This document shows positions 17,960-63,702 of a stretch of 64,000 bases of DNA, piece by piece. The notes beneath the pieces were generated by a model, which saw only the letters and a list, made by a program, of their open reading frames with translations, made no database searches and was not told the DNA's origin. Origin of the DNA: Takakia lepidozioides (Eukaryota > Plantae > Bryophyta); NCBI GenBank assembly GCA_030704615.1, contig CM060734.1:9610001-9674000 (forward strand), written 5' to 3'. Both the position numbers and the translations under genes were made by a program. Numbering within the stretch: position 1 is the stretch's first letter; the number at the start of each line of letters is the position of its first letter.

Positions 17960-17960
<1 letters not shown>

Positions 17961-18036: not shown

Positions 18037-18037
<1 letters not shown>

Positions 18038-22300: not shown

Positions 22301-22437
22301 TGAATCCTCATGTATATCTTTGGCGCCACCTTGCTCATTGCTGGCCTCAGGGTCCTCAGACACTTGATCTACAGTCATCCTGTTGCAGGTCCAACCTGGC
22401 CTTCCGCTGCCAAGATACACAGAAATGCAGATGCATG

Positions 22438-25689: not shown

Positions 25690-26104
25690 CCAGGGTGAAG
25701 CCCATGGGATATAACACTGCCCCACCAACAAGGACATCATAAGAGACCGCGTCTGTCACAATGGCCTTGGCTCGCATCACTGAGCCATCTACAGGATGAT
25801 CTGGTTATAGTCCAATGGCCAACTCACGCCGTGTCATGCCCCGAGCCTGCTCTGATCCTCCCAGAGATGTCTGTATCTGGAAAGGACAAGGCTCCATATC
25901 CGCCTCCATGAGGCCCAAACTTGCAATAGCAGCTTTGCCCAACATCAGTGGCTGAGCTCCTGAGTCCAACAAGACCCGCAGTGGCCGGTACTTCTTGCCT
26001 GCTGGTCCACTCAAAGTGAAATTGCCTCTCTGGTTGTCTAACAAGACAACTCCAAGTGTCACCATGGCGCGCTCAAAGGCTGGCCTAGCTGGCAGCTCCG
26101 TCAA
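25690..26104 (-). pseudogene. Gypsy aspartic protease
   Basis: VLLDSGAQ active-site motif and downstream YDVLVGGAVL. Confidence 0.8.
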
Positions 26105-26122
26105 CCTGGCAGCTGCAGCTTG

Positions 26123-28173: not shown

Positions 28174-28956
28174 CTCCGTGATGAAAACTCACAACCCAAC
28201 CGGTTGTCAACCTGTCTCTAATCCCCACTTTCTACAAGGTAACCGGGTAAAGAACCTGTTGCGGCTACTGGTTCAAGCAGGAATAATAGGTTTCTAACGT
28301 AGACCTGTACCTGCACCTGCATCCACCGCAAGCACTCCTATGGTCTGCTGGTCATCAACCCAGCCTCACCATAGAAGAAACACTGGTGGTCTTGCTGGTC
28401 ATCACTCCAGCCTCACCACCGACAGCATACTCTAGGATTGGCCGGTGATCAAATCCGGACCAACCTCCTATGAAAACAAGCACCCACACAAAGCTAACAT
28501 GGCGCACAGTCAAGCATGCAGGTGTAGAGGGGATCCAAACACAAGAAAATCAAGACAGCAACTCCCCCACACCAAAAACACTCCACAGTGTCGCTCCTGC
28601 AAGGATACTCCAGCCCAAACCCGGACTGACTCTTGCCTCCACCTACGGAAAGGTTTTGGCCTACAGAGAGGGTGAAAGACTATGGAGAAGAGAAACTAAA
28701 GCAATTCCTAACCCCAGAATGCTCTCATCCCACCACTCTCCCTCCTGTCTCTATCCACTCGCTTGTATGGCCGTGGCAAGTATCCTTCAATATCCCTCAA
28801 TCAATCCTTCAAGAGCTCTTCAACATTGTCCACCAAAGCTCCTCGAAGGGTCCTCCAAGGACCCCAAAGATCCTCCAAATACTCCTCCAAGGGCCCTCAA
28901 ATATCTTCCAAACAATCCTCCAAAGGCCCTTAAATTTCACTAAGTCCTTTCACTGT

Positions 28957-38863: not shown

Positions 38864-39525
38864 TTCTTGGGAGAGTCAGCTTGGTCTTGGCAGGCCGTGT
38901 TTTAATCTCTACCCACTCAGCTGCACCGTGGTGGTTCTCACAGACCAATCCGACATTACCTGACTACAGAAACAAGCAGCACACTGAAGAGGTCCTCTTG
39001 GGTTCATGGTCAGTCAAATCCTCCATGGGTCATGACACAAGGTCGAGGACAATGTGGTGAGGGCACCTTCTTCTTCGACCTATTTCAGCCTGTTTTGCCC
39101 TCTCATCAGACTCGGCCCTTCATTTGCAGCACGGAGCAGAGCTGGCATGAGATTTTTAAAGATCCTTCATGATGGTGTGACAACCGCAATGGCAAGGTGT
39201 GGTTTTTCCTTAATGTACGATGTGAAGAAGTTTGTCCATCCTGCAAATGTGGGTTGTTGGCTCCTGTTAGTACCATGATTTGGTATTCTTCCTGATGTTT
39301 CAAGGTTCTTGGGAGAGTCAGCTTGGTCTTAGCAGGCCGTGTTTCAATCTCTGCCTGCTCATCTGCACCGTGCTGGTTCTCACAGACCAATCCGACATTA
39401 CCTGACTACAAGACACAAGCAGCACACACAAGAGGTCCTTTTGGGTTGATGGTCGGTCACATCCTCTATGGGTTCTTCTTCGACCTATTTCAGCCTGTTT
39501 TGCCCTCTCATCAGACTCGGCCCTG
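38864..39525 (+). repeat. Direct duplication (about 38864-39120 vs 39306-39525)
   Basis: TTCTTGGGAGAGTCAGCTTGGTCTT...CAGACCAATCCGACATTACCTGACTACA occurs twice, as does TTCTTCTTCGACCTATTTCAGCCTGTTTTGCCCTCTCATCAGACTCGGCCCT. Confidence 0.85.
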
Positions 39526-39959
39526 AGATGCATATTGAATTATGTAAGTTAGCTCGTTGCTCATTGATAAGTAGGGTTGGGGGTGTTTGCAGGAATGATT
39601 GATGTATGCATGATTTTGTGCAGAGGCATAGATAGCTGAAGGAGCAGGGATAGAGTGTGGAAAAGGGCCAGATTTCAAGCTCTAGATTATCTATGATTCC
39701 CTGTGGAAGGATAGATACAAGAAACCTGCATGGGTAGATGGTCAATTGGAAGCCACAGCAGCAGCGACACAATTGATAAAATCAAGCACTGCTAATGAAG
39801 GCACCTTCTAAAACACATTTCACCCTATTTTCCCCTCTTATCAGAATCGGCCCTAAATTTTCATGTTGAATTCTGCAAGTTAGCTGGTTGAGTGAATCTA
39901 GTTGGAGTGACTTTGACATGATACTGCCAATGTGATAAGAGTATGCATTGAACCCATTG

Positions 39960-40630
39960 GTGGCGGGATATTGGGATATCTCTTGGCCATGTGCCATCGT
40001 CAAAGCTGAAATTGTACTAGTTGTCATTCTGACCACTGCCCTAGTGGATATGTATGCCAAATGTGGGTGCAGCAAGCCTGATGCAAAGGGAGAGTTCGAC
40101 AACATGACTAAATGAGATGTGGTGTTGTGGACTGCCATGATTGTAAGGTGTGTGTAGCATAGGTGTGGGAGTAAGGCTTTGGAAACCTAAGAACAAATGA
40201 TGTGGGAAAGGATGAAGCCAAACCAGGTCATGGTCATTTGTGTTTGTTAATATGCATATGCGAGCCTAGCAGCCCTGGGAAGGGGCCAAGAGGTTCATGG
40301 TGACATCATCAAAGCTGGAATTGTACCTGATGTCATTCTGAACATTCCCCTGGTGTACATGTATGTCAAATGCGAGCCTGGTAGCCCTGGAAAGGACGCA
40401 AAGGTCCATCATCAAATCTGGAATTGTACCACTAGATGTCACTCTAAACACTGCCTTGGTGGATATGTATGTCAAATGCACGCCTGGCAGCCCTGGAAAA
40501 GGGTACAGAGGTCCATGGTGATATTGTCAAAGCTGGTATTGTATCTGATGTGATTCTGAACGTTGCCGTAGTGGACATGTATGCCAAGGTTGCAGGGTGC
40601 AACTACAAGGATACATGGCTGTTTTGATAA
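39960..40630 (+). pseudogene. PLS-class PPR fragments; continue at 51982-52370 beyond the MULE
   Basis: ALVDMYAKCG...FDNMTK*DVVLWTAMI; ALGRGQEVHGDIIKAGIVPDVILN. The right flank resumes FDNMAK*DVV. Confidence 0.85.
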
Positions 40631-41499
40631 CAGGGATGCCTCGGCGTGAGCCTGGTCACGTGAGCGCGTGAGCGCGACTGCGCTCACGCCACGTCACCTT
40701 GCGCAAATGCCACGTCACGGGTCTCAGTCCACGTCATCACACGTGGAGGCCGAGTCACCACGCACCCAGAAAGAAGTGGAGTGTATTCCCGCGGATTGGC
40801 ACCCTTTACCGCGGAAACAAGCTGGACGACATAATAAAAGGCATTGAATAAATGATGGATGAATGTACAGTTGGATGATAAACAGATGGATGAGTTTGAA
40901 AAATCTATGTAGATGGATGAATGACGGATGGATAAGAGTAAAATGGATGAATGTATAATGGATGTTGAGCAATGACAAAAATTCATGACAGGAAGATGCA
41001 TGACCAAATCTTTGACGAATGCACAAAGTATATGAAATGAGTGTGGAAGGTTTGTGGGGTGGATTAAAGAGTACAGAGGATGAATGTACAATGGATGTTG
41101 TACAAAGGAAGCTTTCATGAATGGAGCACGCATGAATACAGTGTAGATGAATGCACAATGGATATGAGAAGAGTCAGGAAGGTTTGTGAGATGGATTCAT
41201 ACATATAGCAATTTAAACGAAAGTTGATTCTGTGATTATTATTTGTTCTAAAGGAACAACTACGGTAGAGTAAGGGGATTCAACGTTTCCAGATAATATG
41301 AAAATGAATATTAAAAGAATACAGTTCAGTCTGACTCAGAGTCAGTACAATGTATCCCCTCTTCCTCTGCATCTAAGTCTAAGTATTTTAGAACACCGGA
41401 TCCACGCTGGATACACCTACGGCTGGCCACTAAAAAGTCAGGGGATAGGGACTCGGACGCGTGAAGTGCCATTGCTTCGGCATAAACAGGGAGCAGAAA

Positions 41500-44400
41500 A
41501 TTGGAAAGGGGGCTGTCGAAAACAGACTCGCCAGAAATGACTGTATCTCCTGAAGATCCACCGCTGGCTTTCCTGAAAGACAGCCTGAAAAAGTTATTAC
41601 TGTAACTTTGATGTTATCGAGAAATTGAGTATGACTCCCAAAGAGGGTTTAGCACTTACTCACATGAAAAGTCGTTGTCGACCTGCTTATCTTCGGGATC
41701 GTCATCATTTCGAAATTGAATCCGATCAGTCTGTGTGCCTGAAGTGGAGCCAGACAAAAGGGGGAGGAGCACTGTGTTGTAGAGGTCAGAATCACCCTCC
41801 ATACCAAAAAGGCTTCTTCCGCCTGCCTTGCATGCGTGGTAAGTTGCTCCTGCACCAGACAGGAGAACATAAACAGTTTGGAGGAGGGGATTTAAGCAGA
41901 TGAAACTGTTGAAAGGAAACCAATTCGGAAGGGAGAAAACGACCTGTGGACACAGAAAGATCGACACCCGTGCAGAGCGGTGGCTGCATGACTCCAGCAG
42001 TATTTGCATGAATGCTGGTGACTTTTCCTTTGCACCTCTCCAGGGAGTGCCATCTGGTCTCTTCAGAGTCTGACTGGACTGCATGAAGTTGTACAAAATG
42101 TCATCGACATGGGGCTCATAGGGGGGGTTGACGAAACAACCCTGGTCAGAAATCTCAAAGCTGCGGATGGAGGATGGTGTCTTTGATGTGCGAATCCTCC
42201 GCAGGCAGATCGCCTCGAACATCCTCGTCTGCCAAAGATAGCAGGTTAGTGTGGTAAACACAATCTAAAGTGGAAGTGTGTACATCGGCTATTCAGAACT
42301 CTGACACCAAAAAACCATGAATCGTTGATGATCGGTGTCGATCATAAAACATTCTACTAGAGTGGAGCTGCAGAGAAAATTGAAACTCATGATCAAAGCA
42401 TAAGCAGCAAGGCAGACGGCATACCAGCTGACCAGGGAAGGATAACCTTTCACACAGGTAGAGGCCAGTTCACACAATTCCATGAGTGCGCAAAACTTCA
42501 AACCCTGAAGACTTGAGGTGAGGTATGATGCCAATGCCCGACGACTATCATTGTCACATGACTTGAAAAAGCAGAAAGGTCCCTGCATCAGAGAGGAAAT
42601 TGTTACAGAACCCGAAATACCCAACTCCAGTAGTTGTCCTCGAATTTGTTCCACCCTGGCGTCTTGCCCTTTGGAGAAACTTCTGGCACAGCCTGGCCAT
42701 CCGGGATGTCGAGAATGACAATGTCGGCCGCATTAAGTTTTTCTGCACACCGCACACGAAGGTGGGACCTGTGCTCACCTGCAACAGACATGTTTTTTTT
42801 ATAAGAACGATGGCAAGAATGTTTTTCAAAGAACGAGACTGAAATACTGCCAACGAAAACATTCAGAGAAAAAGGAAAAGAAAATGGAAATCTCACCAGA
42901 TTGAGGAATGAGATTATATTGTCCCAGGTAGGGGGATGGCACCCCAGTGTATCCTCTCTTTCGACTCTGCATCATCGAAAGCCAACCCTCATTAACAATT
43001 TTCATCTCTCCTGCTGAATCAGAACGGGAAGGGTGTGGCTTGGCATCGAACACGCACTGAAGAGTGCGGGGGTATATCTTCCAGCAGTAAAGTCCTGCCC
43101 ACTCTCCATCTCCTTTTCATTCTCCTTCCCCTTGTCCTTTTCCTTCTCTTTGGACTTGTTTGTCCTTTGGCTTTGCTGGTGAGATGGCTATGACATCAAC
43201 AGCCTTGTCTTTTGGTTTGCGGCCCGCCTTCTTTCCCTTCTGCGGCGTTCCCTGAGCATCAGGCTCCTTGGCAGCCAAGGTTGCTATGTTTCGGTTATAC
43301 TCTTCGTCAGTCAAAGGCGCCAGCATCTCAGCGTTATTGTTCAAGTATTTCATATGCTGTTCTTGAAAAGGTCGTGTGCTCAGTGTGGCAGTCAAGGTAC
43401 CACCCACAGTCTCTGAAAGTGAGAAGGACTCCAGTCCTTCAATATCCCTGCAGTATACATGGTTGGATCGTTTGCAGGGTCCGACCACATGTCAAGATAG
43501 TCGGGAATTCCGCTCAGGTGATTTCCTTCCATAAGCACATATTCGTGTACCTGAAAAAAAGGAGATGAATCCAACCCACAAAAGCGCTCAGTGAGTGAGT
43601 AAGATGCAAGTAGAACAGAAAGAATAAAACATGATTGAAATGGCTCTGACAACTGCTCCAAGGACCTTTCAGGACCACACTACTGCTCCAGATATGAATG
43701 TCGTCAACGCCATTCAGAACATTCCATTCCATGACACTGTAAATACATCCTAATCCAGGTGAATGCAAATAAGCGATTAGAAATGACACAGACATAGAAG
43801 TGAATGTCGTCAACGACATTCAAGAATGAAGCCAAATTATTACTGAAATGAAGCAAAATCACAGGATGGAAATAAAAAATTTAAGGAAAAAAACTCAATG
43901 CACATTCATAACGAACCTATCACTGAGGACCTCACAAACATCACTGTATGTGAATGGCGTCAACGCCATTCACAAAAATACAAAAAAGAAACCAATTACT
44001 TAGCTCCCCAATCCATGAAAATTGAATTTGTCGTTTTTTGAATAATACAGACACAGCTGTGAATGTCGTCAACGACATTCACTTTGGATTTCTTAAAACA
44101 GAGCTTATCAAGCCTCCATATTCATCGCAAGAGGAAAAAACAATGCAGAACAACTGAATGTCTGCATTGACATTCAGCAAAATGAAGTGATCAACCCTCA
44201 TTGTAACCTCTATGGACATTACAAAAAAATTTAAATAACCTTGAGGACCGCACAACAACTCCGTATGTGAATGTCGTCAACGCCATTCAAGGACATTATC
44301 AATTCTAATCAGGGACAATATAATTGCACCCTTAGATCCTAACCAGGTGAATTCATATACTCGCTTAAGAATGACTCAGACAAAGAAGTGAATGTCGTCA

Positions 44401-46298
44401 ACGACATTCAATCTGGATCTAAGATTGCAATCCATATGAAGCCACAATTTTTCCCAAAAAAACAGTAGAGTTTCAAGTATGACATTTCACCTGTACACAA
44501 CTCGCATCATGGCCCACTCTCTCCAACCTGACTGTCAAAGTCGTTGGACCGTAAAATGTTACCATCTTTGGAGAACTCCCGGAAAAAACAGTATCTCCAG
44601 GTGAGACCTCTCCACTTCCTTATGTATGCCTCCAATGACATTTGGGGAGGGGAAACAATCGCAATGTTCAGGTCCTTCAAAGTCTGATCCAGCACAATGA
44701 CGGCGCGCTTTTCGAGCTGCAAATAGTATATTTGTCAGAATTGCAAAAAAGAAAACATCACATACTTGAAGAGAAGAAACAGCATGTTCGAATACACACC
44801 TGACTCCAAAATGTAGCCTTGTGGAGCCAGTTATCAAACACCAAATCACTGATTCCTTCCACCTTTGTGCCAGGCTGTATGGTGCTCTTTGGGAACTGAT
44901 TCAAGTCCTTTACTGTTTGATCTGAGTTCCATATCTCCAGCCACCCTTATTTTTTTTTTGTGGGTCGACCATCGATATGGCCAGCCGGTGCAATTTCTCC
45001 TGCTGCATCTCCGGATGCACATGCTTGTCATAGTGTGTTTTGATCTGCTGAAGGAACTCAGGACCAAGTCCAGGATCTACTATTCTAAGCTGCTTTCCGA
45101 AGGCTGACATCAATTGGTTCTTCGCATCTCAAACTCCTTCTTTATTGCAGCTTCCACACCCTTTGATGTCCTTAGTTCCTCTGGTGTAGTGCGGTAATAT
45201 TCGGATTTTCCTTCTCAGCTGCCTCTGCCAGTTCTTGCTGCATTCATTCAAGTAGTGATTAGCTCCGAAGGGACTCTAAACATGTATTCGAAAAGTAAAC
45301 AGATTACAGACTCGGGCTTACCGCATACATGTACTCCAGAAACGCCTCTCGTGTCAAAGAATACCAAGTGCCTGCAGCTCTTCCTGTTTCGCACTTCTTG
45401 ATGATATTGGGTGGTAGTACTGTCCGAAAATCATCCAGCTTCATCAGACCAATCCTCTGAATTCGGAATAGTGTGTGAACCAAGCTTGTTGTCACATGCG
45501 ATTTCTCTGTCGATCTGCAAAAACATTGGAAACATTGCATTCCTTAACACTGTTTTTTGAGGATCAACAAGACACTACAGAGGGGAATCAAATCTCCTGG
45601 ATGACTTACTTGTTCACGTCGTGCATAGCTGTAAGAAGCCTAGCGATGTCGTTTCCTGGATCCAAAACCATTGCCTCCACAGCAACATGCTTGTCTTTGT
45701 CTTTCGAATGGTGTTTCTGAATGTATCCCATCCATGCCAGCAATCGGTGGTTGCCGTCCCAGACGTAGAACATGTGGTTGCAAAATTGCTGGGTGTTCTT
45801 TCCCATCATGAGGCCCAGCTCGAACTCCTCATTGGCATCTTTCCAGCACTCATCCCAGTTATCACTGATCTCTGGAGAAACTAATGTGCTTTTCCCATTT
45901 ATATCCGTCAGTGACACATAAAAAACTTGTGCACCAAGTCTATATCCATGCACAAAATCACTCTCCAATTTTGTTATGTCATGGGAAAGAGGTGGACGCA
46001 CAACAGGCATTGATATCATCCGGCACAGAGGTATGTCCAGACGCCCTCCAGATACGAGCATGTCCCTTATAACCTCCTGAGAGTTTACCTTCTGGAATGA
46101 CATGAGTTCTTTCACCTTGTCAAGGTAGTGCACTTCGGATTCATCTGCTTCATCTGTATTCTCTGAGCTTTTGCGGACTCGTCCCCATCTCCAGATCCTT
46201 TCCCCTCTGATCCTGTAGGCTTCGACCTCACAGTTTTCTGCACGATGCCATTCAGTTCTGACTAAGATTTGCAAATAGTGAATGGCTGGTAACGACAA
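41500..46298 (-). CDS. Multi-exon accessory gene: ParB/Srx-like domain plus beta-class N6A/N4C DNA methyltransferase-like domain (frameshifts present; first and last exons uncertain)
   Basis: Exon about 46255-45608: IPLCRMISMPVVRP...DITKLESDFVHGY...FYVWDGNHRLLAW. Exon about 42779-42561: AADIVILDIPDG...PGWN. Exons about 42230-41660: PWRGAKEKSPAFMQILLESCS...VDLSVSTG|ATYHACKAGGRSLFGMEGD. GT-AG boundaries visible. Confidence 0.75.
43695..44410. repeat. Array of seven 22-bp palindromes TGAATG(T/G)CGTCAACG(A/C)CATTCA in the large intron
   Basis: Starts at 43695, 43801, 43951, 44060, 44155, 44268 and 44389. Confidence 0.92.
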
Positions 46299-46598
46299 TC
46301 ACTCTGTATCAAGGAAACTCACCATGAATGGTGTGAAAGAATTCAGCACAATCTACACATGCAAAGCCGAGACTGCCGTATTCAAAACAAAAGTGAGAGC
46401 GATAGCGAACGGCGTTAACGACAATCACAAAAGATAACAACCTGCCGGATCGGTGTTGTGTAATGACATATATGTGCAACTGATTGGCGGCAACGACATT
46501 CAGTGTAGTTTAGGGAGAATAGTAAGTGCAGACTCTCTCTTCAAACACATAGGTACATAAATCTCATGAGCAGAATCGAATGGCGTTAACGACGCTCC
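46279..46598. repeat. Second cluster of four degenerate copies of the same palindrome
   Basis: Starts at 46279, 46406, 46481 and 46577 (e.g. TGATTGGCGGCAACGACATTCA); a weaker remnant near 46325. Confidence 0.75.
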
Positions 46599-47833
46599 GC
46601 GATTCAGTAGTTCCGTGCTAAAGAATGGAAGAGGAAGGACTCCTTGAAAGGCAATCACATAGACTATATGATAAAAACTTACTGGCACCTTCTTAGGTTT
46701 TGAACTTTGATCCCTTCTCTGCAGCTTTCCTCTTCCCTCTCACATCTGTTGGAGTTTCTGTCTGCGCAAGGGTTTCTTGACCTTCGTCAGGTTCGGCATT
46801 CCGTGTGCTTTCCACCTTCTTCAGTGTCCCTGCGATTCATCTCTGCCTCCACAGGCTGGCGCACTCTTATCGCCGGCTGTGGCAGCCGTGCCTCCTCTCA
46901 GTCTCCGTCTGCTCTTGTGAATCAGTCTCCGCGTTCACTGCTGCCTTGGCCCTGTGTTCTCCAACAAACGACGCCTCGTCATTTTCTCTCTTGCTCTGCG
47001 TCTCTCTCTAAGGGAAGTAAAATAAAGAGACTTTCTTCTCTTTCGTATTCTAGAAGGAACCCTCTCCAGCTTGACTACCACTCTCCCTCTAAGCGCGAAA
47101 AGTAGAAAAAACGCAGTGACTCCCGATTTCTTGCGGATAACCTGTTTCTTGCGTGTCTCTAGAAGCATCGGATTCCCTCCCGTGAACCGTTACACATAGT
47201 CGTTTCGATATTAGTGCACATGCCAGCAATTGGTGTACAGCTGTTCGTATTCAGTTATGGATGTCTGACGTGTGCCGCCCAAAACAAAACGGCGTGTTCT
47301 AAATTATAACTGGTTCAATATTTAAAAAGAACAGCGAATCCCAGAAATTGATGCGCAGTCTTAAACATAAATATAAATGAACGAGAGTTTGATGACAAAA
47401 TTTTGGAATATCATACACGGTCATCCTTGTTATCCAAACCCCACATTCGTTGCACACATTTGGAACTTTCCAGGTGCGCATGATCATTGGTAGTAGTATA
47501 TAGATACATTTACTTAATCTGCAATCCCATCTCGGATCCTGTGGCATGCTTCCAGGAAGTCGGCTTTGTTATTGGGTTTATTGATGAGGTTCTGATTAAC
47601 GTTTAACAGTTGCCGACACTGCCCCTATGGATTCTCTGACCACTGGTCCCACAAGAAAAGTAATTAAAATGGACGGCTGCATATCTGGAATGAATAACAG
47701 ATATGCACAGTCGTTATCTGAGCTTCCTCCGCCATATGCTCTGCTCATTCTTCAACTGTGTTCTGGAGACAGCAGTAAACCGATTTACACTAGATCTGCG
47801 ATAGCAAGGTACAAACATAGTCGAGGAAGGAAG

Positions 47834-50800
47834 ATGGCTTCCTCTGAAGCGGAGTTCTTCTCAGACGACAAACCAGTGCCGTTCTCCCAGGAAGTCCTTG
47901 ACAATGGATTTGCAATTGTTCTGGAACATGTCTTGGCTACCCGTTTTCAGCTGCAGAATGGCTCCATCTTTTTGGAGAAAGAGGTTTACGATCTGAAAGG
48001 GAAGTTGGTGAAATATTCTTTCCAAAACCGTGATGAGACGGCTCATATCAGCCAGTGGAGAGTGCGTCCTGGTCGATACAGAGTACTTGGAGAGCCTCGG
48101 CGAAAGTCCCTTGGGTCATATGTGACGCCCGGGACTGCTGCTTCCGGTCGTTGAAGACAAGAGGGAGGTGGTGGTGGTGAAAAAAGAACAGACGTTCCTC
48201 CACTCCAATCGTTGAGCTTTTCGGATTCTTCCGATGATGACATAAGTGAAATTCCAAATCCAGTCCTTCCTACTGTGGTTGCAGAAGCTGATGAAGAAGA
48301 GATTTGTAGTGTCATCCCAAAATTGCGGGCGATGGGAGGAATGGCTGGATTCAAAAGCGAGTTGCGGGGAATTGATTGGGAATCTTTGAAGCAGGTGCCT
48401 GTGAAGTTCTTGCCGGAGACTTTTGATGGCGATATCCTATTCGAGCTGCCTGCCTCCTCCGCGAGTTGGAGGTGTAACAATCATGATGCATGGAATGGAC
48501 AAGAAACACGACGGGCACCCGTGGTGCAGAACAAAAACATCCAATATTCAGAATGATGACAAGCTTGTTTTCAGGAGGACAGTTTGCAATGGACACCTTA
48601 GGTGTGATAATTTGAATTGCAGACACTTTCTTCAGTCTGGAGTTCATAATCAAAGCGAATGGGAGGGTCTGGCAGAGAATCCATTTCAGCCTGGGACTGC
48701 CCTCCACCGGCAAACACTTTCGTCTGCAAATTCTGCAAACTTGTGCCATCCTGCTTGGCGCTCTGCGGAGCAAGAATGTACTATGTTGTCCACCGTTTGA
48801 ATACAATGACGAGAGCTTGTGTGCATTTTGGATTCCATAACCATCCTGTCTCGAAGGGGGATTACAGGGAGAGTGTTGAGACAGTATCGAGGTTGATCAA
48901 ACAGGAGTTCGGGAGAAACCCATCCGCAACAACATCTGCAATTGCTCTTGGCGCAAGCAAGTCCTTCTTGGAAAGCCATATTTTGAGTGAAGGAGATTCT
49001 GTGGGGACTAAACTTGACGGTGCAGCATTGGACCTGGTCATGGATCATTTCTCCACTTTAAGTTCACCTAACATTCGGCATCAGATCATTGAGAATGGGC
49101 TCTGGGATCAGAGGCTACATAGACAATATTTTGGAATTGAAACGACTGAGCAAGTACGATTACATCCAGGACAATGTATTCCCAGGTCAAGGTGCCATCA
49201 AAGTTTTTCTTTTCAAAATGTCGACTGTTGGGGAGGGCAGTGGGGTTAGCCTCGTGAAGCGGATGCAGAATGGGGGGACTTGCAGAACTGTTTTCTTATG
49301 TTTGATCATGTGAAACGAGTGAAGGATTGGACGACAATGGCTTGTCATGTCTACGATCCAGTGTACCAACGAGTTATGACAATTGCAGTTTGTGACATGC
49401 AATCCGAGGATACGGAATCCCAGAAGCTCATGTGGAATTCCCTGATACGTGTCATGGGCTGCCATGGGCTGCCATCTCCAAATTTCGCAGGTTTCATGGC
49501 GGATAGTGCTCAAGCAAATTCAAATGCTATTCGTATTGTCTTCGGATCGGCGACCCAAAAGTGCCTATGCCAGGAAGAGAGCGTACATGTCTATTCCATT
49601 GGACACAATCTCTGGAAAAACATACAAAGTCGGACATCAAACCAGAGATGCAGACTCAGCACCGTAAATTGTGCAAAGAGTACAAAGATGCTAGAACAAT
49701 GAAGGAGGCGGACACTTTGTTCCAGACAATTCGTGCCTGGTGGTTCTCTTCTGGAGCTGCATCACTTGAGAGTATGAGAGCATTGGAAGATTGGCTGGCG
49801 TTTTGGCACTTCCGGTATAGACAGTGGGGAGCAGCCATGACAATGGTACGAGGCTTCTATTTCATGCTTTATTCATACATTTGCTTTCCATATTTTTGTT
49901 GCTTTCTTTATGTTGTTTCCTGTGCACTATTCTGAAGTGTGGTTATCCTCTTTGCAGAACATGTCCATTGAGGAAATGGCGACATGCCATCTTGCAATTT
50001 GGCAGAAACTGTGCACAATGCATGGTTGCAGCAGTCTGGGAAACGAGGTCGGGATTTGTATGTGGCAACAACAGATGATTTGATACGTGCCTTGCAACAA
50101 CAAACCGATACGTGATTTCTTACGAGGTGGGGTTGGTGGCAAGGGTCCGGACAAATCGGAGTTGATGTTGCGTGCTGCAAACAGATCTGGGGATCCAATC
50201 AAGATAGCACGGGCGGTGAGCATGTATGCCCAGGGAACGCCACTTGTTTCTAGAGTTCCACATCTTGAAGGGGAGGAGAGATTCGGCTCCTGTAAGAGGA
50301 AATTGAACACTCCACCTGGTTCGGATTCAGATTCCCACAGGGCAGACCGTGATAACTTCTCGAAGCCTCGTGTTCCCCTGCATGACAGCTCCGTGTCCGG
50401 AACCATTGTGGAGGAACCTCCAACACGACGGCAAGCTCCAGCATCAAACCGTGCCACTGAAATGGTGCAGGAGAGAAACAACCCCTTGATGTGCTTGAGT
50501 CCGCATGCCCCGACCACGTTTGGCACATAGAACGCACAAGTGTCGGGTCTCGTGTGAAATGTACAGCGATCAGGGCAACTAATTTCGAGAAGTGCACTTC
50601 ATCTATATCCAGAGGTGGTGCCCGAACTCCTGCTCCGACTTTCACGGGCTTGATGCGTCCATACGGTCAACCAGAAGCCAAGAACCACAAGTTCTGGTTC
50701 TGCGCAGATGATTGTGCCAGATGTGTGCATGGAACTGTGCGTCCTTCCGTAGTGATGAAGCCATCTCCTCCAACCGTTTGGCCCGTGAAGGTGGGAACAC

Positions 50801-51329
50801 ATCTCAGCTTTCAGGAGATTGAAATGCTGGAGGAGGCAGGTTTTTCCCTTGAGACAACCCCAACTCCATGCATGTGCTACTACTCCTGCGTCCTCCCGGG
50901 TCCCCCCGGCAAATCCTGACTTGTGGCCAACCAAACGAGATGGAAAGCTCGTTCGGCGTTTCCCTCCAACCGCTGAACACTTTGGCAAAGTGGAGTCCGC
51001 AAGAATGCTCCAAGCTCGTGTTGGAAGCACCACGGAAGTACCCGATCCAGGATATGGTCGGGTATTCACATCATCACTTCCACATCTGCTGTTCATGACA
51101 GACCTACGACATCACGGTTTCCAATTTCCCCAATTGCACATGTCCTGATTTTGTGAATATGCTATCCAGTTTGGGCAAGAGAGGTAAATTCATACCCTGC
51201 AAACATTTGTATTTCATATTTTTGAGGAGGATGGTTTGCGATCCCAAACGTGACAACTTCATTCACCAGGCCACTATGAGTTTCAACGAGGTCGATACTC
51301 TTTTGCAGCGGGATACAACACATGGGTAG
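47834..51329 (+). CDS. Mutator-type DDE transposase with N-terminal Cys/His Zn-finger region and C-terminal SWIM; intron 49846-49957; many frameshifts
   Basis: CNGHLRCDNLNC and CKFC...CGARMYYV...CVHFGFHNHP (WRKY/GCM1-like); FDHVK (D1), FMADSAQA (D2), CLFHW (CxxH), NLAETVHNAW (E); SWIM CTCPDF...PCKH. Confidence 0.85.
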
Positions 51330-52370
51330 CATGAACTATGTAATGTGGTATGTGGATGACCATGATTTGAAATGTGTAATTCACATCAATTCGTCGGCTG
51401 TGCAATGATATGGCCTCCAACTATACGGAGTGAGGTCTGAGTGACAACTTTTAGGTAGTGCACATTTGTCATTGCACCGTTCGAAGTCTACATGTCTTGC
51501 TGTCGCTATGCACTACAATCATCTTTTGAAGATGATCATAACTCTCATTGTTATTTGAGGAGGGAGGAAGTCTTCTCGTGGCAGCCTTTATGGCGCACAC
51601 TTTGTGAGGATATTTTTGTCGTCTTCGTAATTGTAAAAGTGAAACAAACATTTGTAATTGCACAATGTTGGATGCTGCAATTGTAGGCCTCAACGCTCGT
51701 CTTGATTCTATTTAGGCAAGATTCCCTGCATTAATTCCACGGTCATAGGACCATCCACGGTTATAGGCGGCGCATGTTTAATGCTGACGTGGCAGTTGAC
51801 GGACAGTGCCACGTCATCATTTACCGCCACATCAGCATGCTGACATGACGCTCACGCCACGTCAGCATGTGTGCAGGCTCACGCCACGTCAGCTGGCGTG
51901 AGCGTACGCTCACGCCACGTCACTCCTGCGTGAGCGTACGCTCGCGCGCTCACGTGCAACGCTCACGCCATTGCGTCGTTGTTTTGATAATATGGCTAAA
52001 TGAGATGTGGTACCAGCCTAGCCCATAATTGCACTTAACTAGAGTACGCAATGAGTGAAGACGGGGTTTGTGATGACATCGTCCAAGCTGGAATTAAACA
52101 AATGTTGTTCTGAACTATGCCCTTGTGGACTTGTATGCCAAATTGGGGTGCATGGAGGATGATGATCCTAGGATATGCACAACAGCGGCGCGGGATGGAG
52201 GCCCTTTGGAGAGGTCTATGAGCAAGTGGTGTGGGAAGGGATACTGCAGCGCAACCACATCGCGTTTGTTACGTTTGCAACATGTGTGCAAGCCTGGCAG
52301 CCCTGCAAAATATAAAGAGGTTCGTGGTAACATCGTCCAAGCTGGAATTGTACTAGATGTCAATCTGAAC

Positions 52371-53500
52371 TTTGACATGATACTGCCAATGTGACAACAG
52401 GAAAGTATCCAGAAAAAGGTCACAGAGACGAGGAGAAGTTGTGGAATGAATACTTTTCCAACCCTAGTCATGGTGGACAACCGAGGGAAAAAGGTTAATG
52501 CCTGTTAGATTATAGAGAGCAGACGCAATTCAGCATAGGAACTAGCACATGATAAGCTGAGTTGGGTGTTTCCTAGAACAAATCTAGGCTGTCATTATCA
52601 GCTGCAAGGCAAGGAAGTACAATGCATGATTTGTGTAAAGCAGTGATAGCTGAAAGAGCAGGGATAGAGTATGGGTCCAGATTCATCCAGAGGGGCCAGA
52701 TTTCAAGCACATGATTACCTATGATTACCTGTGGATCAATAGCTATAAGAAACCTGCATGGGTAGATGGTGAACTGGAAGCCGCAGGAGTAGCGGCACAA
52801 TTGATAAAATCAGGCACTGCTAATAAATGCACCTTCTTCAACACATTTCACCCTGTTTTCCCTCTTATCAGAACCGGCCCTAAATTTCAATGTCTGCAAG
52901 TTAGCTGGTTGAGTGAATCTAGGTTGGAGTGACTTTGACATGATATTGCCAATGTGACAACAGGAAAGTATCGAAAAATAGTTAACGGAGATGGGGGGAA
53001 GCTGTGGAATGAATACTTTTCTGACCCCAGTCAATGGTGGGACAACTGAGGCAAAAAGGTAAATGCCTGTTGGATTACATAGAGTAGCAGATGCAATTGA
53101 GAGTAGGAACTAGTGTGATAAGTTGAGTTGGGTGTTTGCTGGAACAAGTGTAGGCTGTCATTGTCAGCTGCTAATAGCAATGCAAGGATATATGCATGAT
53201 CTGTGCAGAGGCATGGATAGCTGAAGGAGCAGGGATAGAGTGTGGGTCCAGATCATCCAAGAGAGCCGGATTTCAAGCTCCAGATTACCGATGATTCCCT
53301 GTGGAAGGATAGCTACAAGAAACCTGCATGGATAGATGGTCATGGGTAGATGGTAGATAGTTTGGAGTGACTTTGACATGATACTGCCAAAGTGACAATA
53401 TGAAAGTATCCATAAACAGGTAACAGAGATGAGGAGAAGCTGTGGAATGAACTTTTCTGACCCCAGTCAATGGTGGGACAACAGAGGCAAAAAGGTGAAT
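52371..53500 (+). pseudogene. Tandem intron-split OSB-type PDF motifs; another PDF half at 39665-39755
   Basis: LWNEYFSDPSQWWDN(R)GKK|intron|IHPEGPDFKHMITYDYLWINSYKKPAWVDGELE. WWDN halves near 52440, 53005 and 53440; PDFK halves near 52695 and 53265. Confidence 0.75.
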
Positions 53501-55137
53501 GCCTGTTAGATTACAGAGAGTAGCAGACGCAATTCAGCATAGGCACTAAGGCAAACTCTCCTTCCCCGTAAGGGTGTGTTTTGGTATCTGAGCGAATAAA
53601 TATTTTATCTAAGAATATAATTTCAAAAATTCGTTATTTAATAATGTGCCACTGTCCCCTGTTGGTCAAAAGTAATAATAATAATAATTATTATTATTAT
53701 TGTAGTAATTATAATAACAATAAATTGAAATCCCCCCCCCCACAACGATGCTTGTCAATTGACATGAGGAACCACGTGTCAAAATCACGATGCGACACGT
53801 GCTGACGTCTGATTCCCTCCTCTACAGTCGGGATGGCGTCGCAGTCTGACACGTGGCGTGTTATGTAGAGAGCACGTGTCTCTCTTACACAACGGCTGAC
53901 ATGGACCCGTTCAGTCATTCAGTAAAGCCAGCGTGTATGACTACCCCCACAGCTGCTCAGGCGCCACGTCACAGCCAGGCTGGCGAGTTATATCTGCCAT
54001 GCCACAACTGACTAGGATTTTACGACTGTAGAATCATGAAGTCGTAAATGGCTTTCATAACTGCATTTGCAGTCATAACACAGAGTCGTAAAAGCCGCAA
54101 TCTGTTGTAATGTAAGTAGATGGAACATGGTAGATTGCAGAAGCAATGTGATACTTAATTATAGGCAGTAAGGTAACTTACTAAACATGAATGCATGAAG
54201 GAATAGAAATAGGAAAGCACCCCCATGATACACTAGTTGTAGGTCATGATTGATTGTTCTGAGCGGGAGGAGTACTTAGAGATATCGAACTCTTCTATCT
54301 TGGAGTTTCCACCTCGGATAGCGAAGGGATGGGTGAGTAAAATCTGCTCAATAGCTACACAGGTTGCACAGCCCATAGGGGCGGTGACAGGTGGACACAA
54401 GTTGTCAACGGTGAAGTGGCCAAGAAGTACAAAAATAGTTTGGGAGCTAAACTTGGAGAATTTGCCACGGGGCCAAAAAGATACGGGAGAGTGTTTGAAC
54501 TCAAACACGTGGCTTAAAGTGCCCGGCTCTCCGCATTGCATGATCTGCAATGGCGAGCCCCATTGCACAAAATGACAAACAGAGCCGCCGAGGTACTTGT
54601 CCGCTACTACCGCCGTAAGTAATCTGGGATCAATAAATGCAGGCTGTTGAAAGTTCTACATGAATACCTAGAAGGAGGTTGTGCCAATATTGTGATCATA
54701 GTGGTCATTCAAAAAAAAAAATGTGAAATGCGGAGGAGGGCAATTTGGGAAAATTACCTAGCAACTATTCATAAGCCGATCAACGGAGGAAAAACGACCA
54801 ACAAGGCTTCTTTTAAAAACCAAGATCAAGAAAAACGGGTAGTTATGAGCGGCAGGGTAGGTGTTGTTCCTCATAACCACTACCGAGAAAGAGGGCGCAG
54901 TGCAGGCTATAGACTAGCAGCTATGGCGGGCGTTACAGATTACACGCTAGCTGTACTCCTTACGCAGTGGCGCAAGGACGTACATGACGCGCGTACCTTC
55001 TATCTCACTCATTGTTTGCAAGCCCCGCAGGCTTACACACATTTGCCCGTTCCATTTTGCGCAAACCATACTTTCATGTTATACGTGTTGCAGAGCTTCT
55101 TGCAACTATTCCAACAAGACCTTCTTGTTTGTCCGGT

Positions 55138-58100
55138 ATGAAGCGAATCAGAGAGATGGAGGACTTACGGGTGAAGAGCACTACGATACTTCAGAAGCAG
55201 ACTATTGCCACTCCACAGGCAGTGCAACTATTGAAGGAATTGAGGTTGGAGGGACTGTTGCGCAAAGAATGTCTTTGGCACCACAGAGATTTGATGATTC
55301 AGTTCATCAATAACTTTGAACCAAAGACAAGAGCTACACATGTAAAGGGTGAGAATATACAAGTTACTCCACAGTACTTGCAGCAGCTCTTTGATTTACC
55401 AACTGGTAAAATGAGTGTGGATGAGCATAGGGCAAACTTGCAAATGGTGAATCTTTTCCAGGAAAATAACTTCTTCAAGACCCAGGGATATACTTGTACA
55501 AAAGCTGAGTATCCAGGTTTAAGGGAAATAGGCTAGATACTAAACATTTGTTTTGCTATGAATTAGAACCAACAGTATCTCAGCAGATCCTTTATTGAAG
55601 ATGTTTTGAAGGCTTTGAAGGGAGAGGATGTAGCTTGGGCGGAAATGATGCACAGTGGCCTGGTGGAGGAGATGAGATGGCTGCAAACCACTACTACCAA
55701 GGCCCCAATGATCCCCGGAGATAGTGTTGATGCATCACCACTCTCACAGAGTGTAGCTACCAGTTTAAACACTGGGGGCGGCTACGGCAATTTGCCAAGC
55801 TCCATTGTTTTCTGCCACGACAATTGCAATGCCAGGGATGCGGATCCACAAAGAGGGGAAGCAAGTCGGCAGACAAGGCTTCCACAGTCTTTCACATTGG
55901 CTGAGACAGTGCCAACTATGCTATCGATGACACCCACTCGCCCAAGTGTGTCAGAGGTAGAACCACGAGTGTCATTGGAGAGAGTTGGTATGGCTCAGGA
56001 AATACTAGTGAGTGGTACTGCAAAGCAAGGTGCAGCCAGTACAAAATCCACATCCGCTCCTCTTGGCTCAAGGGCATGCGTTGTTGCTCGAGTGACAGCA
56101 ACTGCAGAGTCCACATGTAATGGTCCTGCAAGTGCGGCTCCACACAAGAAGCCCATACCAATCTGGTCTTCCCTAGGCATAGGAGGTTATGCAGGTGGGG
56201 CTTGGTTATCCTCGCAAGGAGAAGGGGGGTTGGAGGGGCAGCACAAAACCAAAAGACAGAAAAAAAGAGAAACCACTGTGGTAGTTCAGGCTACTCCACT
56301 TGCAACAAGGATCCCTCACGATGATGTTTCCATAGCTCCTGCACAAGAAGGGGTGCAGCAGCACAAGGAGTTGACATTACATGAAGCACAACCACTAGAG
56401 AGGGAGGAAGAAGTCACCTCGGTACCACGGCCAACACAACAAGCTAACCAAGTTGCCCCGGAGGTAACTCAGACTGGTCAAGTACAAGATCCAGTGGGAA
56501 CTTGGCCTGATTGGTTTGTGAAACACCAAACTAATGATAATCAGGAAGAACAATAGTAGGTTTTCCAGGAAGATCCACAACAGGCCATGGTTATGAGTTC
56601 CATAGGCAGGACTCTTAACCTGTTGGGCACCTACTTCAAGACTCATGTTCCTTCCACTCAATTGACAGCATTGCGGGAGGAGTTCAAACAAGAGTTTGAG
56701 GCCAGGATTGTAACTGAGTGTCAAACCAAAGTGGAGGCAAGCCTCAAGTTGCAACAGGACTTGGAAGAGTCTAAAGCTGCCCTGCAGCTTGAAAAAGAGA
56801 ATTTAATCAGGGCAGGTCTTGAGCAGGAGAAATTACATTAGGTACATAAGTAGCAGCTATACCAAATGCAAGTTCAGCATGAAGGGAATTTGCAAGAAGT
56901 GAAACTACTTAATTATGGATTGGAAGCAGCTAATCAAAAACTGGCCATGCAGTATGCCACATTGTCGGCTAATCTGGAGCTGGCTGCAGTGGAAGTCAAG
57001 AAACAAACTGAGAGATGTGCATAGGCGGAGACAGAGGCACATGACTAGGGGAAACTCATTGCTAACATGAATGATACTCTCTATCGCAATGAAAATACCA
57101 TTCAACAGTTGAAACACCTCAATGACAAGAAAGACAAACAACTTTTGGAGTTGCAGCAAAAGGTCATAGTGAGGGATAATGAACTTTCTGTGAGTGAAAG
57201 GGCATGGAAAGAAGCCAATAATCTGTCAGCTGCCTATGCAACTCTGGTCGAACCTCATGCCAAGAGAATGGAGAGTTTACAACAGCAGTTGGAAGCATAC
57301 AGACTCAAGGAGGAGCAGAGTGTCCGAAGTACTACACAGGACTTGGTGGACAATCACCTTTTACATGAGTGGTTGACACAATGGCCAGTGGAAGGGAAAG
57401 CACCTAGGAAATTGACTCAAGATGAGATGAATGATCTCAGGCAACGGGTGCAAAATATTGCCACAACAACTATAGACAATGTCTATAGTTGAATAACTGA
57501 GTTGCAGGAGGATGTGGAAAGACTTCAGACTCTAGTGGATGGGTTGAGTTCCAACATTGAGAAGAGGGCATTTGTTCCAGAGGAACAACTACTAGCTACT
57601 TACTTGCGGGCAAGGACTTTGGTTTCTCAATCTCCAGCACAACAAGTACCGGCCTTGCCAACACAATGAGGGACTGTGGCAACTACAACAACCACTTCAG
57701 GTAGCCAGTGTTGATACCATGGCACAGCAGCAATCAGTACCTGAGGTTTGGGGTGACTCTTCTTTTAACCCACCTACTACAAAGCTATGATTATTCCCTT
57801 CAACAAAATTCCTACTGTTATGGATGTGTGGCTTGGAAAGAATTCAGTCCTCCTGAGTCCTTGGCACATTATTACCAGATCATGCGCATATGGTTGCCAT
57901 TGGCAACTCGGACCAAGGTTCTTCCAACCAATAGACCCATTGAGGATCATCATTTTGCACGTTGTTGGGCAGAGGCAGGAACAATGCTGAAGGAATCACT
58001 TGCCTTCCAGATCATTCACGGGTTCATTTACACCAAGACCAGGGAAGTAGCTAGTCTTGTCATGGGCTGTGGGATGTACTATGCTGCTTGCTTTGTTTTA

Positions 58101-58547
58101 CGCTACCACACCGAGTAGCAGAAAATGCAGACGAGGTTCCAGACTTATTCCAATGGGGAGCATTGGACATTACCTCCAGTTCTAGACCACAAGTATCTGT
58201 ATGATGTGAGGGTCATGCTTCAACGGGATCCAAAACTCCGTCTTTGGTTTTCTTATGCTTTGGAGCACTTAGGAAAGGAGCACTTGGACTATGACCACAT
58301 TTTTCCCAAGGGGCATGAGGCCAGGAAATGGCTGCAATTTTCAAAGGTGATAGGCACGCCACTCAGCTATACAGATGAGGAGCTACGGGCTTATACTAGT
58401 CTTGCTCGAAAGAAGTTGGCACAAGTCTTATCACACAGTGTTCCTAACATGGTGGGCACACACTGTATGCCAATTAAACTTCCAGTGAAGCCCAGGAAAC
58501 CGAAAGGCCAGAGGGGGGACAATGATTCTAATACCAGGCAATTTTGA
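55138..58547 (+). pseudogene. Retrotransposon accessory ORF (plant transposon-protein-like N-terminus, long coiled coil) upstream of a PPT and LTR
   Basis: LMIQFINNF...HVKGENIQVTPQYLQQLFDLP; coiled coil at 56600-57500; serial in-frame TAG/TGA stops. Confidence 0.6.
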
Positions 58548-58796
58548 CATGGCTGAGGACTATGAGAAAGCAATGGAAGAGAAGAGGCGACGAGGATCTC
58601 ATATGCCTGAGAAATTGCCACCATATCAACCCAAGACAGGACAGTCTGCTCCACCTAGTCGGCAGTCATCCCCACCAGCCAAAGACACGGATCGGGCTCA
58701 TATACAGAGCCCTCCTAAAGGCTCTCATCAGCATACTGGTGCCATATTTCAGAGGTTTACTGGCTCTAAGTAGTAAACCGTGAGGGCACGGCTTTT

Positions 58797-58818
58797 TGAG
58801 AGGGGGGGGGGGGGGATA
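58797..58818 (+). promoter_or_regulatory. Polypurine tract
   Basis: GAGAG(n)ATAA directly before the LTR start TGTTATAGGG. Confidence 0.75.
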
Positions 58819-58819
58819 A

Positions 58820-59703
58820 TGTTATAGGGCTGTCTGGGACTTAGATGTTGTCTGGGACTTAGACAGTTTTACGGGTTCTGTGGGGTACCCTTAATTTTGC
58901 GCAGGCCTTAAGGTGTGGGAGACTCAAACCAGCATAGGCTTTAGGGGTGGCAGACAGGCTCACACAATCAGCGGTCACAAGCTTACACAGCCTAACACAG
59001 TTTGTCACAGCCCGACATAGCCAATCACAGCCCGACACAGCCGACACAGTCCGTCACCGCACCACATGACACAGCCGACACGAGTCACAGGGTACTGTTC
59101 TCACTGGCGGGGAACGAGAGTGTGGGAACGTCATCAACATAGGGAACGACGGTACTTACGTACTGTTTGGCTGGCAGTTAGTTAGTTAAGCGGTTAGAAT
59201 AGTTTGCAGATACATTATGCATAGTAGCTACATAGAGGGCATCATTTCTTGGAGCACGATCTGGGAGCACAGGGACGAGAGAGCACATGGAGGAGGAGAA
59301 GATGATCTGATGTAGCTTGATACATGCAAGCTGTAGAGATGTACTATAGGGTAGAATAGAGACACCATGACTTCGGCCTGACACACGATAAATATTAATA
59401 CGATTCCTATTTCATACTCACACTGTGTAGAGAGACCTGAGTGAAACTGTGGAATGAATGCTTAAGAAGATGGAACATGGAAGATTGCAGAAGCAATCTG
59501 ATACTAAATCATAGGCAGTAAGGTAACTTACTAAACATGAATGCAAGAAGGAATATGTATAGGAAAACACCCCCATGATACAATAGTTGTAGGTCATGAC
59601 TGATTGTTCTGAACGAGCTGAGTACTTAGAGATTTCCAACTCTTCTATCTTGGAGTTTCCACCTCGGATAGCTATGGGATGGGTGAGTAAAAGCCGCTCA
59701 ACA
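58820..59703 (+). mobile_element. 3' LTR (884 bp)
   Basis: TGTTA...TCAACA termini, preceded by a PPT; homologous to the split LTR at 36.1-36.9 kb and 54.1-54.35 kb. Confidence 0.85.
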
Positions 59704-59719
59704 TGCCTCAATGATCTTT

Positions 59720-62225: not shown

Positions 62226-62353
62226 ACCGAACGGGGATCACCGAGCATTTGGGTGGCATGGACCCAACAAACACACGCCGTGGGCCCAGCCAGAGTCTAG
62301 TTTTTGTGTAGGATGGTGCTGGTTCTAGAGTACCGAAGTCAACGGCATTTGCC

Positions 62354-63702
62354 TTGGCCATACAACAATCCTTGTTTGAGGCGCGTCCACTGCAGAAGTC
62401 GGTGCTGACTTCTGAGGTGAAATGCATCCACTGCGACATCTTCGCACTTGTTGAGCAGCGCATGGCAAACAAATCCACCATGAAGAGGTGGCCAGCGGAG
62501 AGGGCAATGGTGGATGCGTTCATTGAACATCACAAGAAGAGGAGGGAGTCTGTGCGGGGGGGAATTTTCGAGTCGTCCATGAAGGAAGGTGCTGACCTTG
62601 TCATTGTGGATATCCCATATGGGCAGATGGTGCAAAATTGCGGGGCAGAGGGTGTTGTGCCTGATTGGAATGTGCGGAAGCTTTCGCACATCAGCTCTAC
62701 CATATCACTGGCAAATGCAATCACGGATGATGTGGGACGACTCCTCATTTTCTGCAAGGGTGACGGCAGGATGGAGATGGAGCTTCGACGGATAGTGAGC
62801 AATGCGCCCTTTCGTTTTATGAAGAGGAAGTGGACCTGCATGAATGCCCTCCCGCTCCTGACAGGCAACGAGGAGCAGCCACAATGAACCCAAAACACCA
62901 CCTCCTTCTCATATTTTTCATGTTCCATTCCCTTTGCATGTGGGAAGTCGCCACAGACTTCCCAAATGCCTGAATGGTGTTCTGATCACTTCCTGTTGTG
63001 GGGGATAGCTGCACAGACTTCTCACATACACAGCCATGTTTTCATGGAAGAGAGTAGATCATCCTAGCTGTTCCCAAATCCACTACTGGTTTTTTAATAG
63101 AGCAGTAGTGAGGTAGGTGAGCAGTTTGAATTTGGTCGGAGTCCAGGTCTTGATTGGGAAGTCGGTACAGACTTCCCAGAATAGTGTGGGATAGACTTAC
63201 TAGTGTGCGTTGAGGTAATTGGGTTTTGTGTGCAGACTAGGGTGTTCTATGCTTTTTTGCTGTTGAAGAGCCCGACATACACCTACTTACTTGGCCGGGA
63301 TGCCAAGAAACTCAATTTGGACTTCAATCCGGTGGACACCGACATTGTGCGGAATTTCGTCAGCAAAGACAGCTGTACACAAGACCTAATGGGACCTGGT
63401 TCAGAGGCGCCAGAGAAAAAAGTCCAATGTCCCTACAGACTTTTATGGAGATGCTGACTGACGTTGGTGGCAAGATTGTCGACCTCACTGCAAACTGTGG
63501 CGCATCGATAGTGCTGGCACGGGTTTGTGGTCACCACTTACTGGCCTTGGAAGGCGATGGAGAGCTTGTAAGAGAGAAACTCATGGGCCTGCAATGTGAC
63601 ATGCCTGCTACCCCAGATCCCATGGCCGCAATGGACTTGACACCTGATGAGTGGTTCAGGGAATCTGGTGACCAAGCTGTGCATGTCCATGTATTGGAGT
63701 GA
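62354..63702 (+). pseudogene. Second beta-class N6A/N4C methyltransferase-like gene fragment (two coding blocks)
   Basis: IFESSMKEGADLVIVDIPYG...VPDWN; FNPVDTDIVRNFVSKD; PEKK...FMEMLTDVGGKIVDLTANCGASIVLARVCGHHLLALEGD. Confidence 0.7.

Follow-up and report, generated by a model that had tools for sequence, protein, structure and literature searches.

Intronic palindromes in a ParB-fold accessory gene of a Mutator-like transposon of Takakia lepidozioides as candidate self-recognition sites

Our analyses of a 64,000-nucleotide stretch of the Takakia lepidozioides genome (Bryophyta; assembly GCA_030704615.1, contig CM060734.1, positions 9,610,001 to 9,674,000 of the forward strand; hereafter the window) identified a Mutator-like DNA transposon whose accessory gene, predicted to encode a ParB-fold domain together with an amino-methyltransferase-like domain, contains a 22-bp palindrome, TGAATGTCGT-CA-ACGACATTCA, in ten clear copies and one with a 1-bp insertion, all in two predicted introns. 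Judging from their sequence and arrangement, it is fairly probable that these palindromes constitute family-specific docking sites on double-stranded DNA, bound as a dimer by the element's own protein for the purpose of self-recognition. Exact candidate sites are thereby supplied for ParB accessory proteins, whose ParB domain family is large and unannotated by Pfam, and the occurrence of three homologues with three palindromes provides a built-in specificity control. In a preprint on Bostrychia (bioRxiv 10.1101/2025.02.11.637652), no transposon protein other than VANC is listed as known to bind and modify its own element; if true, our proposal would add a second, independently evolved self-recognition system in land-plant transposons, and a possible source of orthogonal protein-site pairs for epigenome targeting.

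Palindromes in two predicted introns and at two homologous genes

The whole 64-kb window was scored against a symmetric consensus with the centre left free. Ten sites with 0-5 mismatches were found, all within two clusters (43695-44410, n = 7; 46406-46598, n = 3), background matches appearing from 6 mismatches upward (one site at 6, at 36041; 16 at 7; 66 at 8), so that the remaining 52 kb are free of copies. At no more than 3 mismatches there were seven distinct sites (12 strand-matches) in the window and none in 100 shuffles, and 16 of the 17 window matches to the half-site TGA[AT]TG[GT]CG fell inside these palindromes. The eleventh copy (46279-46301) shows 8 mismatches in register and is really 23 bp long, with one added central base and an exact right half-site. 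A preliminary description of this DNA had reported about 11 copies and none outside the element, which agrees with our count and, within the window, with the confinement we observed. Its placement of seven copies 95-150 bp apart in one intron was likewise confirmed (106, 150, 109, 95, 113 and 121 bp), the intron being a predicted one. Four further copies, described as lying upstream, do precede the ParB exon, but they are inside the predicted first intron (GT 46682, AG 46262/46258) and not upstream of the gene.

Both introns were predicted from splice signals, homology and intron positions common to a homologue on a contig referred to as L040, considered below. None of the splice joints listed for two runs that we guessed to be RNA spans the array, the gene being covered only partly in them. 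Among the contigs mapping to the element, a single one of run X5 joins 46503 to 43889 and a single one of run X1 skips 43769-44360; either the array is rearranged or shortened in some copies of the family, as this suggests, or the contigs were misplaced on repeats. When metagenomes were scanned with the motif, 39 loci were recovered, each with one exact site; a second, relaxed site was present in one of them, and none of the 39 was related to the element by tblastx.

The palindromes had been described as better conserved than their spacers, and indeed the mean pairwise identity among them was 0.91, while the 22 nt on either side reached 0.41 and 0.29; longer flanks of 60 nt aligned at about the background level (0.49), with a gapped identity of about 0.5. 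The flanks of the seven-copy array fall into two classes, A/C/F and B/D/G (letters as in Table 1), and a two-site unit was therefore duplicated. Within these classes, mismatches amounted to 2/132 in the palindromes versus 52/132 in the left flanks, and in the two closest pairs to 0/44 versus 11/44 (Fisher P = 5e-4), a contrast somewhat inflated by the motif having been picked because it was conserved. Core CpGs were kept in 18 of 20 cases, and the array spacers were CpG-depleted, with 8 CpG observed versus 25 expected (P = 6e-5).

Both arms show the same half-site variants (T/G, A/T), which recur in all combinations. The copy at 43951 had been credited with compensatory changes; the G-C variant is present in both arms as claimed, but it represents one symmetry-restoring change, since its right-arm variant is shared by the sister copies at 43695 and 44268. 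Mismatched pairs would be G-U on the transcript strand in only 3 of 15 cases overall and in none of the four that belong to the main array, and the recurrent half-site variant would give G-A or U-C mismatches in RNA. Despite the strong folding of the intron (z = -6.3 versus 20 shuffles), the scarcity of G-U pairs favours sites read in double-stranded DNA over RNA stems.

That sister families might have different palindromes had been named in advance as a test, and two homologous genes, each with its own palindrome, were found. The second gene of the window lies outside the element, and its palindrome, TGGGAAGTC-N6-GACTTCCCA, has three exact core matches in the window and none in 100 shuffles. 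All five window sites of this palindrome at no more than 5 mismatches are inside the second gene; four are intronic by prediction, and the fifth (62395, 12/12 core match) is in probable coding sequence, so that the earlier statement that exons contain no palindromes stands for the transposon and probably fails for the second gene. The third gene is on L040, an intron-bearing contig with plant-like spliced sequence in a bacterial (cyanobacterial) assembly, of which it is probably a contaminant. Among 401 cyanobacterial genomes a relative was present only on this contig, and within that assembly the L040 palindrome occurs only there. The L040 homologue aligns at 42% over the ParB exon and has intron positions in common with the window gene. 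Its four long palindrome copies, spaced 106-109 bp apart with the core TGGGTCTCGG-AT-CCGAGACCCA, form an array 200-550 bp before the ParB exon, like the upstream cluster of the window gene. Each unit of this array (L040:1-400) is a foldback of 60-90 bp around a central GGATCC and thus exceeds the window sites in length. Neither the stretch of the second gene nor that of L040 shows a transposase. Cross-gene matches among the three palindromes were never better than 6 mismatches, and a TCG-N4-CGA-like centre common to all three was noticed by eye and post hoc, being imperfect in the second gene.

The ParB-fold accessory gene and the transposon that carries it

The preliminary description had named the gene a ParB-methyltransferase gene, and both parts of this name found support, the former through a structural model and the latter through a homologue. 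Pfam and Protein Data Bank sequence searches did not recognise the ParB domain. By its AlphaFold2 model (pLDDT 88.9, against only 34 for a single-sequence fold), the exon 45609-46258 encodes a ParB/Srx fold: the best Foldseek matches were Noc, ParB and PadC (probability up to 0.99, E 0.016 at best), and in VIA, where KorB (Z 7.6, rmsd 2.7, 90 aligned) and PadC (Z 7.5) gave middling scores, all eight matches with Z >= 4.9 belong to the ParB/Srx superfamily. Noc, ParB, PadC, KorB, sulfiredoxin and SerK made up the top fold matches. Fifty homologues of similar length were found for this exon, and a profile of the ParB domain matched 1,202 clusters (50% identity level) at E <= 0.001, 626 of them at E <= 1e-10; ten homologues looked up by name came from Riccia (8), Adiantum (1) and an unnamed source (1).

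In ParB, the CTP-binding arginine motif is GERRxRA and parS is read by a separate helix-turn-helix domain (PMC7333895). The folded part of the accessory protein corresponds to the nucleotide-binding domain of ParB and not to the parS-reading one, and its arginine patch reads DGNHRLLAW (family motif [WC]DGNHR[LFH]xAW), so that the term parS-like, previously applied to the palindromes, can be kept as an analogy only. In the search for a helix-turn-helix domain, hhalign yielded no alignment with nine cyanobacterial ParBs, not even across the ParB fold, and Atlas matches for the middle region were below 0.9. No ParA family was seen among the open frames of the element that were scanned, which are part of the total, and no VANC-type family appeared in the Pfam scans.

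The methyltransferase-like region was recognised through P0199, a full-length homologue of 1207 aa with a C-terminal permuted N6/N4-methyltransferase domain (PF01555 E 5e-5, below the cut-off; Atlas 0.95 to N6_N4_Mtase clusters), in which motif IV precedes motif I, as in the permuted beta-class fold. A homodimer prediction for residues 150-600 of P0199 scored 0.00 and carries no weight either way. The corresponding pieces in the window have no Pfam match, and their link to this domain goes through L040, which matches them in tblastn (E 1e-4 to 3e-3). Motif IV reads DIPD here and DIPY, DVPE, DMPS, DLPT, DMPT and DVPF in homologues, with an aromatic residue in two of the seven, whereas active enzymes carry DPPY or SPPY (PMC8885841). 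From these motifs, methylation by the accessory protein appears doubtful. A tblastn search of phages with the methyltransferase homologue returned three weak motif-I matches, and viral contigs contained no relative of either the transposase or the ParB exon.

The accessory gene is on the minus strand, opposite to the transposase. The latter has the motifs FDHVK, MADS, CLFH and AETVH, which we take to be a DDE signature with CxxH, and a SWIM domain above the Pfam cut-off (PF04434); its match to the MULE family PF10551 (E 0.017, 16 bits) is below the cut-off of 27.6, and the term Mutator-like rests for this reason on the target duplication and the motifs. Homologues numbered 160, and none of the six longer ones matched any Pfam family; by these sequence comparisons the transposase clade is large, Mutator-like and under-described. 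Matches to the GCGTGAGC/GCTCACGC motifs in the window all lie at the two element termini (9/9), where they are likely, unlike the intronic palindrome, to represent transposase sites; some of them make up a perfect palindrome of 24 bp at 51894. Across the element, empty-site joints were observed in contigs from four public runs, from 40615 to 51983 in three and from 40617 to 51978 in the fourth, and these are probably paralogous empty sites because the flank is itself a pentatricopeptide repeat (PPR)-like repeat. Contigs on the element numbered 48,568 in run X1 and 1,015 in X5, with all 30 bins covered, a depth that is no copy number, the more so as X1 may derive from the source sample. The element is a variable multicopy family. 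The present copy is a decayed relic and the family would act through other copies; indels distinguish these at several places where, as judged by eye, the present copy changes frame, and intact copies therefore likely exist.

Table 1. Features of the transposon, its accessory gene and the homologous second gene (window positions)
Feature	Position	Strand	Basis or remark
Mutator-like DNA transposon, 11,351 bp, inside degenerate PPR-like repeat	40631..51981		9-bp direct repeat both sides, CA...TG ends
Left target-site duplication, 9 bp	40622..40630	+	sequence
Right target-site duplication, 9 bp	51982..51990	+	sequence
Left degenerate terminal repeat, GCGTGAGC/GCTCACGC motifs	40631..40720		motifs at 40644-40690
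Right degenerate terminal repeat, GCGTGAGC/GCTCACGC motifs	51838..51981		motifs at 51850-51968
Frameshifted Mutator-like transposase	47876..51329	+	D, D, CxxH, E motifs; C-terminal SWIM; extent by tblastn
Intron-split, frameshifted accessory gene: ParB-fold, helical, beta-class amino-methyltransferase-like	41400..47000 (ends approximate)	-	homologues
Methyltransferase motif-IV region, DIPD	42606..42778	-	aligns with L040 DVPE, second gene's DIPY
Predicted intron with seven-copy array	43551..44490	-	GT 44490 to AG 43551; no long open frame
Palindrome A	43695..43716		1 mismatch to symmetric consensus
Palindrome B	43801..43822		arms perfect
Palindrome C	43951..43972		G variant in both arms, fully symmetric
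Palindrome D	44060..44081		arms perfect
Palindrome E	44155..44176		4 mismatches, both core CpGs lost
Palindrome F	44268..44289		1 mismatch
Palindrome G	44389..44410		arms perfect
Exon for predicted ParB/Srx-fold domain, DGNHR motif	45609..46258	-	AlphaFold2 model and fold matches
Predicted first intron with four weaker copies	46262..46682	-	GT 46682, AG 46262/46258
Weak copy, one added central base	46279..46301		23 bp
Upstream-cluster copy	46406..46427		4 mismatches
Upstream-cluster copy	46481..46502		3 mismatches
Upstream-cluster copy	46577..46598		5 mismatches
Second homologous methyltransferase-like gene, 5'-truncated, DIPY; outside element	62312..63702	+	abuts PPR-like repeats
Second gene's palindrome, 24 bp, perfect arms	62941..62964		also 63155-63178; weaker at 62392, 63001, 63740

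Several other elements were observed in the window. Degenerate PLS-type PPR-like sequence (39500-40620, 52000-52400 and 59700-62230) forms a high-copy repeat that has been the target of several insertions. By eye, a Helitron-like fragment with an 81-bp coding tandem repeat of 7.7 copies (14677-15940), a LINE-like (long interspersed nuclear element) sequence on the minus strand with reverse transcriptase, RNase H and a chromodomain-like stretch (15817-21205; 76-nt G run at 17961) and a Gypsy-like polyprotein, also on the minus strand (21214-28217), were distinguished. The Gypsy-like polyprotein has an embedded C5 cytosine methyltransferase (24002-25141; PF00145, E 2.5e-12) and brings to mind the DNMT-bearing retrotransposons that occur in algae. 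Direct repeats of 239 bp (91%), 5.35 kb apart, surround open frames 54988-58547 without Pfam match, and this region (54113-59701) is possibly an unclassified long terminal repeat-like element.

Self-recognition and its alternatives

Under the self-recognition hypothesis, protein from intact copies would bind each palindrome as a dimer, probably via the helical region that follows the ParB fold, at sites amplified through duplication of the two-site unit. The loaded protein would then mark or shield its own family, which could in this way evade CpG silencing by the host, a downstream effect that we infer by analogy with VANC and VANDAL. Given the DIPD of motif IV in this copy and the absence of the aromatic residue in five of the seven sequences, the methyltransferase domain in this family would more likely act as a shield binding DNA and S-adenosylmethionine than as a writer.

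Several observations weigh against this hypothesis. The GERRxRA arginine patch is altered, only G-x-x-R being left and the RxR part absent, and the catalytic [DS]PPY motif is degenerate, with no DPPY or SPPY in the seven sequences. Element-wide, the observed/expected CpG ratio (0.68) is about that of the nearby LINE (0.67), an equality that leaves no sign of element-wide protection; elsewhere in the window the ratio is below that of the element (Gypsy 0.50; PPR-like flanks 0.24 and 0.44). Gene conversion, moreover, can also homogenise short palindromes. The comparison of palindromes comprises three loci, in one of which, the second gene, the view is without a ParB exon, and L040 begins inside its array, whose foldback units could be a separate repeat.

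Conservation of the palindromes and retention of their CpGs would suit any binder, so that the sites might instead be read by the element's transposase or by a host transcription factor, and regulate the transposase gene and the accessory gene, which are divergent. According to the AtMu1 preprint (bioRxiv 10.64898/2026.08.24.746577), a Mutator transposase needs no partner to activate its cognate copies and render them hypomethylated; the binding described there is at terminal repeats, and the termini of our element have a motif of their own, confined to them. As a change of motif in each family is not expected of a host factor either, we consider another binder unlikely. A neutral origin would have a chance palindrome duplicated in tandem within introns, with template switching and gene conversion maintaining the symmetry and the likeness of its copies. 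The duplication of the two-site unit implied by the flank classes, the single symmetry-restoring change at 43951, of the kind expected from template switching, and the contig without 43769-44360, a hint of unequal crossover, are all compatible with such a process, which leaves unaccounted for the decay of the flanks to near background beside palindromes at 0.91, the CpGs kept in the latter, the second cluster in another intron with unrelated flanks and the recurrence of different palindromes at two homologues; taken together, these features make neutral origin distinctly unlikely.

Palindromes might otherwise function as RNA hairpins in the pre-mRNA, in splicing control, as a small-RNA source or in autoregulation by an RNA-binding protein. 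All copies in the element are intronic, the arms are able to form 9-10-bp stems and the intron folds strongly, but any palindrome array gives such a folding score, G-U pairs are scarce and Rfam matches in 40500-64000 were none, which renders this explanation very unlikely. Highly improbable, finally, is a tiny mobile palindrome or miniature inverted-repeat transposable element (MITE)-like repeat, dispersed in the genome and collected in introns by chance: the long foldbacks of L040 do resemble MITEs, but the arms of our palindromes have no common extension beyond 22-24 bp, the rest of the window is without a copy, and the metagenome loci with exact matches are singletons, none matching the element.

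Self-recognition by the ParB-fold protein could be part of a broader phenomenon, although we regard the following scenario as rather unlikely. Seed-free land plants would harbour hundreds of transposon families, each with a ParB clamp of bacterial type and a private palindrome. Nucleotide-gated loading at intronic sites would be followed by sliding over chromatin, with 4mC/6mA (N4-methylcytosine/N6-methyladenine) writing by DIPY-type proteins or a block of CpG methylation by a dead methyltransferase fold. The result would be an anti-silencing code, programmable and derived from phages, in which the families share a TCG-N4-CGA-like core and differ in the outer arms.

Comparison with known systems

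The idea of a self-binding ParB accessory protein is already in print for algal transposons, namely Ectocarpus Sola1 and Bostrychia PAG3, and ParB-linked methyltransferases have been described in chlorophytes, chytrids and phage loci (Iyer et al. 2016, PMC4738411). In the literature consulted, no land-plant or intronic case and no binding test were found; the supplements of the Ectocarpus paper and of the Bostrychia preprint may list land-plant relatives. Sola1-1_Ec32 of Ectocarpus encodes, opposite to its transposase, a 1104-aa ParB-like/N4-N6 methyltransferase proposed to bind and modify its own element (PMC12477816), and thus resembles our system in its ParB-like and amino-methyltransferase domains, its length of about 1100-1200 aa and its orientation. 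Compared by description, it differs in that ours is a Mutator-like element of a land plant with a degenerate catalytic motif, and that paper does not report palindromes.

In Bostrychia, the PAG3 gene of Plavaka elements encodes a ParB domain and has adjacent inverted-repeat arrays, proposed as self-binding sites, and PAG3 homologues are noted in Mutator elements of Chondrus (bioRxiv 10.1101/2025.02.11.637652). A ParB-domain accessory gene with inverted-repeat arrays beside it is thus common to both systems, whereas the effector described for PAG3 is a 2-oxoglutarate (2OG) oxygenase, its methylase being separate (PAG2), and here the arrays are intronic and the ParB fold is fused to a methyltransferase fold. 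Bacterial-type amino-methyltransferase folds linked to transposons or CpG are also known in eukaryotes from bdelloid N4CMT and from the Marchantia 4mC methyltransferase (PMC8885841); these are host-encoded, with SPPY in N4CMT as described there, in contrast to the transposon-borne, ParB-fused domain reported here, which is without the canonical motif.

With ParB-parS, Noc-NBS and KorB-OB our system has in common a predicted ParB/Srx-fold N-terminal domain and clustered, two-fold symmetric sites, but it differs from ParB-parS in its altered GERRxRA and in having nothing to segregate. A proposed functional parallel is that of VANC, which binds short, family-specific motifs in introns and other non-coding parts of the Arabidopsis VANDAL elements (PMC5735166): again a Mutator-type element, an accessory gene and family-specific motifs amplified in non-coding parts. 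Binding has been proven for the VANC motifs, which are words of 8-9 bp without palindromic symmetry (PMC5735166), and the protein considered here has instead a ParB fold and a methyltransferase-like domain. As proposed here, the palindromes and a ParB-fold protein would together make up a self-recognition module operating in the manner of VANC, and the feature is a member of neither ParABS nor VANC.

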